A stretch of 64,000 nucleotides of DNA from Escherichia coli (GTDB lineage: Bacteria; Pseudomonadota; Gammaproteobacteria; Enterobacterales; Enterobacteriaceae), in NCBI RefSeq assembly GCF_022846255.1, contig NZ_AP025682.1; one strand, given 5' to 3'. Shown here one piece after another: positions 883-6,818 of the stretch. The notes beneath the pieces were generated by a model. It saw nothing but the letters and a program-made list of their open reading frames with translations. It did no database searches and was not told the origin of the DNA. The position numbers were made by a program, and so were the translations under genes. Within the stretch, counting starts at the first letter, position 1; each line of letters begins with the position of its first letter.

Positions 883-2673
883 TTAAGTAAATAAAAACGC
901 CTCAACCTCTTTTAAAGTCTTTTCTAAAAAACGCAAAGATTCTCTGCAATCATCATCGCTCATTTGAGCTATTTTTTTTGCTAACGGGATCTTTCGTTTT
1001 TTGGGTATAAGATACTCAATCTTAATTGAGTAGTCTTTGTCTTTTAAATTATCAGAGAGTTTCATTTCTGATTGAATTAACTCATTAACTTTTTCTGGTG
1101 TAAGCATTTCATTTAAATTAGCTCTTCTTTCAAGATTATTTTCTTCTAACTCTTCTTTCCATATTGCAATAGGATAATTGGACTCTAAAACCCCTGGTAT
1201 TTTATAACCATCTTTTTTTGCACTGAGAACATCTTGCGTTGGTTTTAATGTAAAGCATTTAACTGATTTACCAATATCTTGAATATCACCAAGTTCTTTT
1301 TTGACATTTATACCATCTTTATCTGCATCTACAATGCCAACACATTTATATTTGTTTTGATGATGTTTATGGATATGATAATAAGCTTTTAACATGTCAC
1401 AAACATAGTTTGTTCCTGCGCCAAAATCTTTTGTAATTACCTCAATGTCATTCATCCTTTCTGGTATGAAAACTTGTATCGCCCTTTCAATTATAATTTT
1501 ATCGCTGGCTCCCTCTACGTACATTACAGCTTTTTCATCACCAAGTTTACCAACGGATTCAATATTTTCTATACGAGATTTCACCTCATCAATATAGGGT
1601 GAAAGCAATTCCATAACCCCCATTCTGTCATCAAGCAGTGCATATTTATCATCACAAGAGGTTACATCAGTCAAGTCTTTCTCAATAAAAATGCAATTAA
1701 CAGATCTATCTTGTTTTGAGAGATTATAAAATGCAGGAGAATGTGTAGTTATAAATAATTGTGATACAGGATCTGGCACGAAAGTTTTAAACTGTATGGC
1801 AAGCTTGATTGATGACGTTAACTCAAGGTTATTTTCTGGCTCTTCATAGCCCCATATAAATGTATACGGTGGGTTGCCTCTTGCCTGTAGTGTTTTTGTT
1901 TTCTCAGCAATATATTTTAATATTAATGGAATGTGGCGAGCTTTGATTCCATCACCTCGTTCATTAAGAGATATTTTCATTTCATTTAGAAAGTCTAAAT
2001 TCCCAAATAAATTACTTAGATCTCTAGGAAGCGAAAGTTCAGAGTTAAAACCAAGAGATTCGTTAATCTCTTTTGTTAACTCATGAAGATTCTCAGCTAT
2101 ACTCTTCTCAAATGCTTTGCTTGAATCGCTAAAATTCTCATTGAACACAGCATTTACAACAAAATATATTTCACTCCTTAATTTTGCAATATACCCTTTA
2201 TCCTTAATTGCAGGAATATAAACATATTTTACATTATTAAGTAACTGTCTTATATTTGAACGAGCTGGAATTTCTTGCTTTTCTGTTCGTCGACCGCCTC
2301 TAGGGCCACTATATGATTTAATCCCAAGTATACTCTCATCATAAAATCCACCTGAGCGCCATGACTTCGTCCATTCAATTAAATTTCCATTTGTTGCATG
2401 ATAACTAGATGGAATATCAAGAAGTAATTTAATTTTTATCTCTCTAGCTTTTTTAGAATATTTTTTTGCCGCATAAATATTATAGTCAGTTGAAAAATCA
2501 AAAGATTCTCCTGGATTTGTTTGCGAATTAAAGAAGAGGTTTAAAGCTCTTAATATATTTGATTTACCAGCATCATTATTACCAACAATAATCTGTAGTC
2601 GCGCACTATCAATAACTATTTTCTGAATTGATCGAAAATTCGTGATTTCAATTCTTCGAATACTAACCGGCAT
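883..2673 (-). CDS. OLD-family ABC-ATPase/Toprim nuclease (class-1 OLD-like, GajA-like or fused PARIS AriAB-like), ~596 aa
   Basis: N-terminal Walker A (IVGNNDAGKSNILRALNLFF), Walker B/D-loop-like FIWGYEEPENNLE and H-loop-like QLFITTHSPAF; C-terminal Toprim-like motifs (MYVEGASDKIIIE, GIVDADKDG). Start placed at the ATG at 2673 (M37 of the track ORF 883..2781), which has a GAGG Shine-Dalgarno ~8 nt upstream. GC about 30%, well below the core genome. Confidence 0.75.
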   Translation of the reverse strand: MPVSIRRIEITNFRSIQKIVIDSARLQIIVGNNDAGKSNILRALNLFFNSQTNPGESFDFSTDYNIYAAKKYSKKAREIKIKLLLDIPSSYHATNGNLIEWTKSWRSGGFYDESILGIKSYSGPRGGRRTEKQEIPARSNIRQLLNNVKYVYIPAIKDKGYIAKLRSEIYFVVNAVFNENFSDSSKAFEKSIAENLHELTKEINESLGFNSELSLPRDLSNLFGNLDFLNEMKISLNERGDGIKARHIPLILKYIAEKTKTLQARGNPPYTFIWGYEEPENNLELTSSIKLAIQFKTFVPDPVSQLFITTHSPAFYNLSKQDRSVNCIFIEKDLTDVTSCDDKYALLDDRMGVMELLSPYIDEVKSRIENIESVGKLGDEKAVMYVEGASDKIIIERAIQVFIPERMNDIEVITKDFGAGTNYVCDMLKAYYHIHKHHQNKYKCVGIVDADKDGINVKKELGDIQDIGKSVKCFTLKPTQDVLSAKKDGYKIPGVLESNYPIAIWKEELEENNLERRANLNEMLTPEKVNELIQSEMKLSDNLKDKDYSIKIEYLIPKKRKIPLAKKIAQMSDDDCRESLRFLEKTLKEVEAFLFT

Positions 2674-2807
2674 AAAAACCTCATCGTAACGCCTGTTTAT
2701 ATTTATAGCTGATAAAATAACACAACCACAATGAAAGTGAATAGTGAATTGCCACAAGTTTAACAAACACCTCAAGATCATTTAAAATGACTTAAAGAGA
2801 GGCTCCC

Positions 2808-3125: not shown

Positions 3126-3257
3126 TCACTTTTCCTATTATGATTAGTGAAAACATAAAGTGCGGAAACGAATGAAAATGCACTGTATTATTTAAAGACA
3201 TCATCCAACGCCCTTACCGTGGTATACACTCAGGCACCAGATGCTGTTTTACAGGGT

Positions 3258-3989
3258 TCACCTGCCATCCAGAAGACGCCCCGGCCCACGACTGCAACCA
3301 TAATTACGTTGCCCGGAACCGTCATGCTGCTTCGTCTCATACTTCACGAGATAACTGGCTCTGTTCTGGGCTTTCTGCATCGCTTCCACATCACCACGCT
3401 TGATCCAGAGAACAGCGGCTTCACCCGGCTTTTTGTCTGAAGCCTTCCTGGTTTCAGAACATCCACCCGACAAAGGCGTATCATCGGAAGAAGGGCGAGC
3501 ATCAGATGATGTCGGTTTACGGAAAGGCGTCCGCCTGGAAAAATGAACCAGTCCATTACCCTGCCAGGGCTCAAGATGCAGAGCGCTACACCATGCCAGT
3601 TGTATCAGCGTCGCCAGCGAAGAAGGAACGGTGAAATCCCCTGGCGAGCACCAGGTATCTTTGTTGAGCAGTAATATCACGTGATAATGTTTCCTGCCTT
3701 TTTCCTTGCCAAACTCCCGACACCAGAAATAACGCAGAGTGGTTGCACGCACACGCTTGTTGGCACGTCGTTTATGTCGCTGGTAAGCCTGAATTTTTGC
3801 TTTCAGGGATGCAAAAAAACGAGAAATCACCGCTGAATCTAAATCGGTATCCATGATGGTGGCAGGCATATACTCAGGGAAACGTAAATCCACCCGGATT
3901 AACGAGACGGCACGGTGTTGCGCCAGGGCACTGTTGAGAATACTTTCAAAACGGGATAACCAGTAAGCATTGTGTATTGGTTGATTCAT
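3258..3989 (-). CDS. YagK/YfjJ-family (inovirus Gp2-like) prophage protein
   Basis: 243-aa ORF whose N-terminal half (MNQPIHNAYWLSRFESILNSALAQHRAVSLIRVDLRFPEYMP…RYFWCREFGKEKGRKHYHVILLLNKDTW…) resembles YagK/YfjJ proteins of CP4-type cryptic prophages; GGAG Shine-Dalgarno ~9 nt upstream of the ATG at 3989. The Arg/Ser/Gly-rich C-terminal tail may be read-through. Confidence 0.6.
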   Translation of the reverse strand: MNQPIHNAYWLSRFESILNSALAQHRAVSLIRVDLRFPEYMPATIMDTDLDSAVISRFFASLKAKIQAYQRHKRRANKRVRATTLRYFWCREFGKEKGRKHYHVILLLNKDTWCSPGDFTVPSSLATLIQLAWCSALHLEPWQGNGLVHFSRRTPFRKPTSSDARPSSDDTPLSGGCSETRKASDKKPGEAAVLWIKRGDVEAMQKAQNRASYLVKYETKQHDGSGQRNYGCSRGPGRLLDGR

Positions 3990-5503
3990 GATGAGAGATC
4001 TCCGTTGATTTGGATTGACTTCACATCATTAATCACCGCGGTAAAACTTTACGGCATCCGGCATTGAGCAATGCTACAACTCTCTGATTAAGAGTGATTG
4101 AAACGGAACAAACCATCCCGGAACGAAAAGATAATTCTACACGCAGGGTAAAAACACTCAAGAACAGCGAATGGATTTAAAAACGACATGGACAACGAGA
4201 AAAGTCAGAAGGGAAAAGGATCCACAGAACATTCGAACAAAACACCAGAAACGCAACCAGAACGCTTCCTGGTAATGCAAATCAACAACAACCCCAAAAC
4301 CTACAGCTTAATCACACAACTCAATCACGGATGCGAATGACACGTTTAAAACCTGTTTACAGATAAACCCCGCCACAAGAACAAAAATCACCAACATCAG
4401 AATCGATTTTCTCATCCTGAAAAAGTTACGTTTCACTACGCACCATAAAAACGATTAACCATCGATAACGTAAACCTTATCTGAATCAAAAACACCAAAA
4501 CCGTTCATCACACTTTCGCAATGCAAGAAGAAACCTCATGACAAAAAGAATGACCTTACACGGAAAAGAAAACGTCAGGAATCGTTAATGCCTCAATCTG
4601 ATTGTTATCAAAACATCCAGAAAGTCGTTTAACAGAATCGTCGTAAGCACATCGAAAAAAACGTCAGATTACTTCAGGAAAGTTCGGGTTGATTTAGCGT
4701 AAAGATACTTTTCTCATGCTAACGTCGAAACTCGAAATCTCAGGAAAGGTTAAACGTAACATCAGTAAAATCGAATAGCAGATTGATTGCTGAAGCAGAA
4801 AGGTTTTACAGCAGCATTAAACTGATTTAGTTAACGTAAAGATTTACTAAACTGGATGTGTATAGCAATGCTTAACGAAAACACTTGTAGAAGTGTTTAT
4901 GAAAATACGTGTATAAGACTTACTGAAATGCTTAGTAAAAATACTTAGTAAAATACGTGTATATAGTATCATACCGACATTAGCAACATTCTCAGACACT
5001 CATGCAGACTGAATGTTGATTACCCGTTTTCACATCAGGCATGGTTCTTTACTGACCAAAAAACAAACTGGTTTACTCTTGAATTATTTTCTCTACCTCA
5101 GAAAACATGGTCTCAGGAATCTGCTATGGTTTCATAGTTTCTGTTGTTCCTTTCATAAAAGTTATAAGTCATTGTCATAATCATACGATAATCACTTTAT
5201 GTTAGTTTTTACTGTCACACGCTACTGACTTTTTCAGTCATTGCCAGAAAGGGGCTCTTTTTACTTCCATTTCACCACTCAACAAATGCAAAACTTGTCC
5301 AGTAAAGCGGACCACCTCTTGCTCACAAGCAACGAATCATCTCCAGGAACAGCCCTCAAACATTGCAGAAACAAAAACAACAAAACCCTCATTATCACTG
5401 ATGTTCGGAAAATTTCCCGGAACAAAAAAAACGAAATCAAAATGAGACTCATTATCATGGATGTAGTCAAAAAGACGTTATGGTGGCTTTCAGTTAAATG
5501 GTA
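3990..5503. other. ORF-free, strongly A-rich / T-poor tract (+ strand) with short direct and inverted repeats
   Basis: No credible ORF of 60 aa or more in any frame over ~1.5 kb; extreme A-over-T skew on the + strand; imperfect tandem units around 4860-4975 (repeated aatacgtgtata and gcttaNNNaaaa motifs) and an inverted repeat aacacttgtagaagtgtt. Confidence 0.4.
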
Positions 5504-6634
5504 CTATTTCTCATAAATCCACTTAACTTTTTTTACTGATTCATCCCAGATAACCACTTTATCAGTAAAAAATGAATTATATAGATTGACGAGTTTTTCT
5601 GTTTCAGTTATTCCCAATGTATTATGTATCAGTTGTAGATATGCTTTTATCCAGATTTCTTTACCCTCCCTCCACTTATCTATAAAACTTTCCAGCTTAC
5701 TTAATCGTTGATTTATAAAAAACGAATCAATATCATGAAAAAGCTCAACAAGAAAACAGCACGAGACAATCTCAACAAAAAACAAATTCTCCTTAAAAGT
5801 ATTATAAAACCTTATCAACACATAACGAAAAACACCTCCTGTTAATCTTTCCTGTTCATAAAACAACAAACCAAAAACAGGAGGAAATCTTTTAACCACA
5901 CCACTTTTAATCCAGTAAGGATGATGATTAGTCTTTACTGGCAGTGAATAAAAGAACAATTCGGTTTCTCTTTTCCCACCACAAACAGACAAAACTGTCT
6001 TATAAAGACTTTTTGAATCATTATGTCCTGATACCCCAGACGAATTAGCAGAGTATTTTCTTTTTACTTTTTGCCTTAATGGAGCTGGAAGAATAATAAA
6101 ACGGGATGGCAGATAACAATCGCTTTCAGAAGACCGGCATTCGCACACATGAAGATTTATATTTACATCCGGACAATTCAAAAACCACACAGAATAATTA
6201 TCGCACCGTTTGCAATATGAAACCCATGAATAAATTGCATAAAGTTCAGAAAGCGCATCTAACTCTGCTTTTGAATTAAATGTGATACCGTTTCTTCGAA
6301 TTCTCGTTTCCAGCGTTCTCCATGCCGGGGTTTTCAGTATCTCACGAACTTTTTTATTAAGTTCAGCCAGAGATGGTCCCTGCTCCTGTTTATGTTTCGT
6401 CCTGCTGTTAATGATTTCTCTTTCTTTTACTAATTTCCTCTTTCTTTTTGGTCCTTCTACCTTTCTTGGCAATGCTTCATTTAATCTGTGAACAGGATTT
6501 TGCTCTCTTCTTTTTTTGAGCTCACAAAACCTCTCATAATGTTTTCTGCACAGTCTTTTCTCCACTGCCATTTTTACTGAGAAAACCTGATTGTTACAAT
6601 TTTTTCTGACACATTTGTTTTTACGTCCGGTCAT
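5504..6634 (-). CDS. Hypothetical protein, 376 aa, basic Cys-rich N-terminus (possible zinc-binding/nucleic-acid-binding); function unknown
   Basis: Long ORF at about 35% GC. N-terminus MTGRKNKCVRKNCNN…CRKHYERFCELKKRR and a second Cys cluster YCKRCDNYSVWFLNCPDVNINLHVCECRSSESDC. No family recognised by eye. Confidence 0.6.
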   Translation of the reverse strand: MTGRKNKCVRKNCNNQVFSVKMAVEKRLCRKHYERFCELKKRREQNPVHRLNEALPRKVEGPKRKRKLVKEREIINSRTKHKQEQGPSLAELNKKVREILKTPAWRTLETRIRRNGITFNSKAELDALSELYAIYSWVSYCKRCDNYSVWFLNCPDVNINLHVCECRSSESDCYLPSRFIILPAPLRQKVKRKYSANSSGVSGHNDSKSLYKTVLSVCGGKRETELFFYSLPVKTNHHPYWIKSGVVKRFPPVFGLLFYEQERLTGGVFRYVLIRFYNTFKENLFFVEIVSCCFLVELFHDIDSFFINQRLSKLESFIDKWREGKEIWIKAYLQLIHNTLGITETEKLVNLYNSFFTDKVVIWDESVKKVKWIYEK

Positions 6635-6818
6635 CCTCTCATCTCCTGAAACAGCAGTATGTCATTAGTTCCCGTTCTGAAAAACTGACGCCATACTCCA
6701 TTACACTTTAACAATAATGTCCGTAATTCAGACATTCCATCATTTTTCACGCCCATATTACCTGAATGATAAACCGGATTAGTGTGATCCGGTTCAGTGA
6801 AATCAACAGGATACCGGT

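Follow-up and report, generated by a model that had tools for sequence, protein, structure and literature searches.

Anatomy of a mosaic non-coding tract, with a conserved directional motif array, upstream of a YagK/YfjJ-type HUH nuclease gene in Escherichia coli islands

The 64,000 nucleotides of Escherichia coli DNA analysed here (RefSeq assembly GCF_022846255.1, contig NZ_AP025682.1; hereafter the window) include a tract at positions 3990-5503 that lies between two genes read from the minus strand and contains no long open reading frame (ORF). It directly adjoins the start codon of a gene for a 243-aa YagK/YfjJ ("inovirus Gp2 family") protein, an HUH-type nuclease (3258-3989, minus strand), and at its other end the stop codon of a 376-aa orphan cargo gene (5504-6634, minus strand). 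Both the placement of the tract between these neighbours and the lack of a gene in it had been proposed in a first-pass annotation made from the sequence, and both hold: the longest stop-free stretch in all six frames of the tract is 91 codons, the list of ORFs has no entry above 91 aa, and a maximum of 91 codons is the chance expectation for non-coding sequence of this composition. Comparison of related islands suggests that the likely working parts of the tract are only a short conserved leader beside the HUH gene and an array of an 8-base motif whose copies all point the same way.

RefSeq annotation of near-identical loci identifies the surrounding backbone as that of a CP4-57/pathogenicity island (PAI)-type island. 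On one side of the tract stands the gene for an "inovirus Gp2 family protein", followed further on by an AlpA-like helix-turn-helix (HTH) gene; on the other side, and in the opposite reading direction, is a GTPase-HTH-DUF905-DUF932-antirestriction-RadC-DUF987-YeeU-CbtA module. Variable cargo slots are present on either side of the HUH gene, and the backbone module of the tract sits between two of them; their contents in the loci examined are an OLD/Gabija-like nuclease, TIR proteins, restriction enzymes, the siderophore receptor IreA and several orphan genes. ARAGORN detected no tRNA or tmRNA gene in the window, and the insertion site of the island must therefore lie outside it. Our search of the literature on yfjJ/yagK, "inovirus Gp2" and the small RNAs (sRNAs) of enterohaemorrhagic E. 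coli (EHEC) islands found no description of the tract, and its backbone module carries no annotation other than, in some genomes, short hypothetical ORFs and insertions.

The tract had been viewed as a single unit, a view that did not survive BLAST searches and an alignment of 14 loci, in which two unrelated modules meet at about position 5090. Module A, the backbone module (3990 to about 5089), accompanies the HUH gene at 78-99.7% identity. Module B (5090-5503), the non-coding 3' flank of the 376-aa gene, is 97-99.5% identical among loci that share this gene and unalignable (32-42%) in the others. Homology between islands with different cargo ends at about 5089-5090 and restarts at about 6743, 76 bp before the GTPase start, and 5090-6742 is therefore an exchangeable cassette of which module B forms the 3' flank. 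Of 5426 complete E. coli genomes, 1877 have BLAST matches to the backbone module, at as many as 8 sites in a single genome, and the whole of 3990-5503 is present in only 412. The tract had no match in the phage collection and matched just four records, all from E. coli, in the plasmid collection; it is also absent from K-12 CP4-57, where the gap between yfjI and yfjJ is 152 bp.

Module A is itself assembled from interchangeable blocks. The window belongs to what we term Form 1, in which the middle of the module (4143-4474) is A/C-rich and is the most skewed part of the tract; strain SCU-176 (NZ_CP054345, 4,719,322-4,722,684) is another carrier of the Form 1 locus. In Form 2 islands about 1.19 kb of unrelated DNA takes the place of this block and contains a plus-strand ORF of 176/177 aa that is read divergently from the HUH gene (L134, 2616-3146; L135, 2653-3183; L107, tract positions 667-1200), and in one of these loci (L135) module B is joined to a Form 2 backbone. 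The Form 2 segment and the A-rich middle have neither nucleotide nor translated similarity to each other. The Form 2 ORF has no family match, bar a marginal one to the PHROG "transcriptional regulator, D5-like" (E 0.003); by eye, it contains a Myb/SANT-like W..E.D..L...LGRTP..V..K motif. A metagenome sample yielded 91 loci with a complete HUH gene, 59 of Form 1, 26 of Form 2 and 6 of other arrangements, and since Forms 1 and 2 are both found with the same HUH-protein clusters the blocks have been shuffled by recombination. Common to both forms is the distal element (4475-5089), which ends at the junction with the cargo cassette, is about 69% identical between Form 1 and Form 2, and is represented by 82 distinct variants at 66-100% identity. 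Small-scale repetition is also visible elsewhere. A (CATCAC/CATNAC)n microsatellite of variable copy number occupies the plus strand at 4387-4400 and the Form 1 equivalents, and produces (VM)n runs in a spurious ORF when read on the minus strand. Modules A and B share a short similarity (TCCCGGAACGAAAA / TCCCGGAACAAAAA, at 4116-4129 and 5415-5428), and A-rich 36-mers at 4484-4519, 5369-5404 and 5429-5464 are 67-75% identical, the two in module B being 60 nt apart; such similarities could have arisen by chance in A-rich DNA or could date from an old duplication.

The plus strand had also been described as roughly half A and very T-poor. This is accurate for 4090-4589, where A is 0.39-0.46, T is 0.10-0.26 and C clearly exceeds G, and for a second A/C-rich patch at 5290-5389, but not for the tract as a whole (A 0.373, T 0.253, C 0.211, G 0.163), and in 4990-5289 T exceeds A. 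The skew is local to the tract and not a feature of the island at large.

The tract could be the frameshifted remnant of one or more protein-coding genes, the first-pass annotation having suggested a decayed low-complexity gene, and in sister islands an intact 176-aa ORF does stand where the window has its A-rich middle. That ORF is however part of the Form 2 segment, to which the middle is unrelated, and searches for coding ancestry gave no positive evidence. Six-frame translations matched 0 NCBIfam families at E<=1 and 0 of 5.8 billion protein clusters at E<=1e-3, a search of limited sensitivity for short, low-complexity matches. Open frames in the 14 aligned copies reach at most 100 codons, and no long one covers homologous sequence in any of 62 Form 1 variants. 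PGAP calls hypothetical proteins of 58-83 aa on the plus strand at the equivalents of 4094-4340 in some genomes, in keeping with a coding past; against this, the length of this frame varies from 0 to 57 aa across the 62 variants. Three individual candidates were rejected. The plus-strand ORF 4188-4340 is not conserved, and nucleotide diversity (pi) at its codon positions 1, 2 and 3 (0.124/0.099/0.106) lacks three-base periodicity; the minus-strand ORF 4847-4999, which crosses the repeats, stays open in roughly half of the variants only, with indels that are not multiples of three; and the minus-strand ORF 4308-4436, hydrophobic but with a frameshifting tail and the (CATCAC)n microsatellite, is likewise not conserved. 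The plus strand moreover contains only 14-16% G, which is atypical of a coding strand. We therefore regard descent from a decayed gene as very unlikely, and the small ORFs annotated on the tract in some genomes are probably spurious.

A second suggestion for so long a gene-free region was a structured non-coding RNA, whether a large ribozyme- or riboswitch-like RNA or a cluster of sRNAs. Beyond the length of the tract and its absence of ORFs, the observations that favour it are weak sub-threshold Rfam matches, the best in 3900-5600 being STnc390 (20.6 bits against a cut-off of 50) and STnc550 (18.1 bits against 48). These are far below the gathering scores, and covariance scans of 12 kb at E<=1 and of the tract alone at E<=5 returned no match near them. 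Sliding-window folding of both strands gave z scores of -2.5 to +1.6, with no consistent excess over shuffled sequences, and as plus-strand RNA the A-rich middle (4100-4600) is nearly unstructured, with a minimum free energy of -10 to -15 kcal/mol per 150 nt and z of about 0. Consensus folding with RNAalifold of 27 distal elements of less than 92% pairwise identity likewise gave energies near zero, the range per 120 columns being 0 to -4.7 kcal/mol for either strand, and the diversity of the sequence is neutral-like. A structured RNA is thus extremely unlikely here. An RNA acting as a sponge for CsrA was also considered and rejected, as the tract contains 13 GGA trinucleotides against 11.8 +/- 2.4 in shuffles, and k-mer enrichment in the tract revealed nothing notable. 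The EHEC island sRNA sRNA56/MavR lies in the ter locus and is unrelated to the tract.

Evidence of constraint is clearest next to the HUH gene. The putative leader and proximal control region of this gene occupies 3990-4142, of which 3990-4074 is nearly invariant. Columns 3990-4050 are 100% conserved in 14 E. coli loci selected by BLAST, an observation independent of the metagenome sample, in which conservation of 3990-4029 was forced by the search pattern. Nucleotide diversity is 0.079 for 4030-4074 and 0.197 for 4075-4142, and leader positions 1-85 of the query occur alone, at 95-96% identity, in many genomes that lack the remainder of the tract. Within the leader, about 75-85 nt upstream of the HUH ATG, is a palindrome, GCATTG-AG-CAATGC (4061-4074); a second leader haplotype has at the same position, in an alignment read by eye, the different palindrome CCATTG-N8-CAATGG. 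This suggests an operator or hairpin maintained by differing sequences in the two haplotypes.

The second feature of interest is the repeat array of the distal element, whose repeats had been noticed at the outset. The sequence AATACGTGTATA occurs at 4904 and 4952, the 17-mers GCTTAACGAAAACACTT (4870) and GCTTAGTAAAAATACTT (4930) agree at 13 of 17 bases, and an inverted repeat AACACTT-GTAG-AAGTGTT (7 bp with a 4-nt spacer) is located at 4880-4897. A repeat finder reports a 24-nt register and TRF periods of 12-13, with copies 62-71% identical over a 45-nt unit; the longest exact repeat is 14 nt, compared with a mean of 10.4 nt in mononucleotide shuffles, 1% of which reach 14. Stronger support for these repeats is comparative. 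They form part of a directional plus-strand array of the 8-mer A[CT]GTGTA(T) at 4856-4963 (ATGTGTAT at 4856; ACGTGTAT at 4907 and 4955), interleaved with AACACTT/ACTTAGTAA units, which takes in the repeats first described as well as the 4880-4897 inverted repeat; the latter is not conserved among the aligned relatives. At least 3 copies of A[CT]GTGTA with no more than one mismatch are present in all 82 distal-element variants, and none in the opposite orientation. Exact copies number 1-6 per variant, mostly 3-4, with spacings of 19, 34-36, 48-51 and 57 nt and a total span of 18-204 nt, and copy number shifts through indels of 13-60 nt. The upstream gaps of Gp2-like genes in two other genera, otherwise unalignable with E. 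coli, contain arrays with an ACACAT core: ACACATTTTA three times within 70 nt in Brenneria, and ATGTGTTT three times within 50 nt, in inverted orientation, in Providencia. An iteron or operator cluster had been among the first suggestions, and in its anatomy, a directional, copy-number-polymorphic array present in every variant and echoed in two genera, the comparative evidence supports it. The array nonetheless does not match classical plasmid iterons, which are near-identical repeats set at constant, helically phased intervals: its copies are 62-71% identical and their spacing varies.

Abutting the array is an extended -10-like element at 4963-4971, TGATACTAT on the minus strand (ATAGTATCA on the plus strand). 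It is found in 82 of 82 distal variants as a consensus match of ambiguous direction: the same bases on the plus strand read TATCAT, and TTAGTA-16/17-TATCAT is present in 62 of the 82. Scans of the window for promoters and terminators gave results at chance level, promoter-like sites being no commoner than in shuffles, and comparative scanning left the -10-like element as the one remaining site. Were the element a minus-strand promoter, transcription from about 4965, or read-through from the cargo gene, would give the HUH gene an untranslated leader of about 1 kb that is U/G-rich, C-poor and a poor substrate for Rho, and antisense transcripts of the plus strand would be A/C-rich, unstructured and rut-like and would be quickly terminated by Rho. 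In such an arrangement the composition of the long transcript would matter rather than its sequence, and the skew would be either selected or a footprint of transcription. The presence of the element in every variant is consistent with this, as is the plus strand of 4200-4650, which has C at 0.20-0.30 against G at 0.10-0.20 and almost no structure; but the promoter is a consensus match that reads equally well on either strand, and in Form 2 islands the leader would run antisense through the 176-aa gene.

The pattern of substitution bears on the same idea. Parsimony counts per site in the skewed part, which are crude and distorted by recombination and homoplasy, are 1.94 for G>A against 1.31 for C>T, 0.72 for T>C against 0.44 for A>G, and 0.28 for T>A against 0.15 for A>T; the C excess, with 208 losses and 111 gains, is apparently decaying. 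This asymmetry would sustain an excess of A over T on the plus strand, and fits more frequent deamination of the minus strand: both flanking genes have it as their sense strand, and as non-template strand it is the one expected to be exposed. An A>T excess in the same sense is also found in two tracts of unrelated sequence. One is the Providencia gap, and the other lies upstream of a second, sequence-unrelated Gp2-type paralogue of 188 aa with HAHAVFWI and YLAKEEQK motifs (locus L001, 1926-2492, minus strand), where a 1.25-kb ORF-free tract (L001, 2493-3746) has an overall A of 0.40, reaching 0.43-0.50 with C at 0.04-0.07 in 3243-3540; the corresponding DNA in the present genome is just past the left end of the window. 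Together with the tract itself these are only 3 of 9 independent Gp2-like upstream gaps, so the skew is not a defining property of such gaps, and its absence from 5-6 of the 9 counts against a long transcript selected for its composition, which we consider distinctly unlikely. The skew does not look like a coding or a structural requirement. Curved DNA with phased A-tracts, a target for H-NS-type silencing, was rejected on phasing, as power in the 10-11.5 bp band was not above that of dinucleotide shuffles (7.5%-43% of which, depending on the segment, reach the observed value).

Most of the tract appears to evolve as unconstrained DNA, with the first 85 bp as the exception, because its diversity is at or above the four-fold level and its conserved columns are unclustered. 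In the same loci pi at four-fold sites of the HUH gene is 0.09, against 0.11-0.20 across tract segments: 0.113 in the A-rich middle, 0.144 in the distal element, 0.113 in the repeat array and 0.198 in the outermost 115 bp. Outside the HUH gene's proximal promoter and leader, the tract could accordingly be functionless, hitch-hiking intergenic DNA, possibly eroded earlier cargo, that persists because selected modules lie on either side of it and whose only use, if any, is as homology for recombination; the array would then be a slippage-prone minisatellite. Diversity at or above the synonymous diversity of the adjacent gene and unclustered conserved columns are what this would predict, and frequent indels, a hexanucleotide microsatellite, insertion sequence (IS) insertions in the region, a freely exchangeable middle segment and the lack of skew in most other Gp2-like upstream gaps fit equally. 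It does not readily explain why at least 3 same-orientation near-copies of the motif persist in 82 of 82 variants despite extensive indel turnover, why a similar motif core is arrayed in two other genera, or why E. coli, Providencia and Brenneria alike keep an ORF-free gap of 0.45-2 kb upstream of the HUH gene; neutral DNA would moreover be expected to drift to A=T and G=C unless mutation were strand-biased. In one E. coli-like genome, about 3.8 kb preceding a 63%-identical Gp2 homologue (locus L021, 214-4000) contains a single called gene, of 58 aa. We judge neutral filler to be nearly as likely as the interpretation that we prefer.

That interpretation, to which we assign a probability of roughly 0.4, is that the tract is non-coding backbone of a CP4-57-type island, mostly filler, in which the array is a putative binding platform of origin-like or operator type. 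Where the tract acts at all, it would do so as DNA and not as RNA. It separates the leftward HUH gene from the rightward GTPase-DUF932-antirestriction-RadC-CbtA module, with the exchangeable cargo cassette in between, and most of its 1.5 kb would be filler under weak constraint or none, put together by recombination of interchangeable segments. Next to the HUH start, the nearly invariant 85-150 bp would be the proximal promoter, operator and leader of that gene. About 870-975 bp upstream, the 3-6 copies of A[CT]GTGTA would form a multi-site platform for an island-encoded DNA-binding protein, most probably the HUH protein itself, with the AlpA-type regulator of the island as the alternative, and would mark either a site of nicking or origin-like function or an autoregulatory operator. 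The HUH protein is a candidate because its closest structural relatives bind tandem short repeats beside nick sites. The 243-aa protein has the HUH motif, the catalytic Tyr and a predicted HUH fold; a search of PDB sequences with its profile found no relatives, and its predicted fold best matches the origin-binding nickase domains of parvovirus NS1 and adeno-associated virus (AAV) Rep. Parvovirus NS1 and AAV Rep bind tandem short direct repeats that adjoin their own nick site.

As the neighbouring gene is an HUH nuclease by its motifs and predicted fold, an origin-like element is plausible. A more specific form of this idea, in which the YagK/YfjJ HUH nuclease has its cognate origin in the distal element (4475-5089) and its array, either as a double-strand origin or as an origin of transfer (oriT), is in our view unlikely. 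If true, it would imply that CP4-57-type islands replicate or mobilise after excision by a rolling-circle or relaxase-like mechanism, which has not been described for them. A passage in bioRxiv 10.1101/364505 may be a sign that an island of this sort is excised or amplified; it is not linked to the tract.

Several observations weigh against a binding platform at the array. The distal element shows no strong footprint, as its conserved columns cluster no more than permuted ones do. In E. coli almost 1 kb separates the array from the HUH gene, and the irregular spacing of the copies (19-57 nt) is unlike that of classical iterons. No convincing nick-site motif or stable hairpin was identified; the only inverted repeat nearby, at 4984-5018, tried as a terminator or nick hairpin, was rejected, with a folding energy of -8 kcal/mol, z of about 0 and loss in 1 of 4 variants folded. 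The shared ACACAT core was spotted post hoc, is inverted in Providencia and is absent as an array from five other distant Gp2-like loci, and as such is a lead rather than a test. Finally, the universal presence of the array could reflect simple inheritance, with slippage altering its copy number.

CP4-57-type islands, which have matches in about a third of complete E. coli genomes, carry both virulence and anti-phage cargo. If the array is the recognition site of the HUH nuclease, it offers a concrete experiment on the upkeep, amplification and movement of these common islands; should the tract be nothing but filler, one candidate for a large non-coding RNA is still removed from consideration.

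The 376-aa protein, whose N-terminus is Cys-rich, has no match in Pfam, NCBIfam, PHROGs or PADLOC, and the same cassette slot elsewhere holds unrelated uncharacterised genes of 262-407 aa on either strand; the slot filled by 5090-6742 is a possible hotspot for uncharacterised defence or accessory genes. Downstream of the HUH gene, a gene of low GC content (about 30%) at 883-2781 (minus strand) encodes a 632-aa ATPase-nuclease, labelled "ATP-dependent nuclease" in RefSeq and matched in PADLOC by AriA (8e-22), GajA (1e-15) and Old (1.5e-13), and is probably anti-phage cargo. In other islands its slot contains a TIR protein, a restriction endonuclease, ireA or an acyltransferase.

Among known systems, the tract may be compared with the HUH (rolling-circle type) origins of NS1/AAV Rep elements, rolling-circle replication (RCR) plasmids and filamentous phages with gpII. 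It shares with these an HUH nuclease gene in cis, short direct repeats of a single orientation beside a well-conserved block, and a neighbouring protein whose predicted fold best matches NS1/Rep nickase domains. It differs, apart from the lack of an identified nick-site consensus or stable hairpin, in that the array is about 0.9 kb from the gene and its units are longer and irregularly spaced; rolling-circle replication or transfer of the island is moreover conjectural, and the composition skew is local. The Cox boxes of P2, the Xis sites of lambda and the Vis/AlpA-family sites of P4 are arrays of directly repeated sites for regulator or directionality proteins, and resemble the tract in that a short motif is repeated several times in one orientation beside a promoter-like element and, in related loci, an AlpA-family protein is encoded downstream of the HUH gene. 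Unlike those arrays, that of the tract is not at an attachment site and its spacing is off the helical repeat; we know of no AlpA recognition sequence for these islands. Iterons of theta plasmids are similar in their tandem directional repeats, with a register of about 20-25 nt and a copy number that varies between relatives, but the copies here are imperfect and vary in spacing, neither a DnaA-box cluster nor an AT-rich unwinding element was identified next to them, and the neighbouring protein is an HUH nuclease rather than an iteron-binding winged-helix Rep. With respect to genetic setting, the tract may be compared with islands of the CP4-57/CP4-44/CP4-6 type and tRNA-inserted defence islands (K-12 yfjJ, yagK). 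K-12 CP4-57 itself differs in its short yfjI-yfjJ gap, and thus in lacking the tract. Islands with intY-alpA-RadC-Gp2-like cores have also been reported in Pseudomonas (bioRxiv 10.1101/2024.08.29.610337). These islands have the same gene neighbourhood as the tract, with a Gp2-like HUH protein, AlpA, GTPase, DUF932, antirestriction, RadC and CbtA/YeeU genes.

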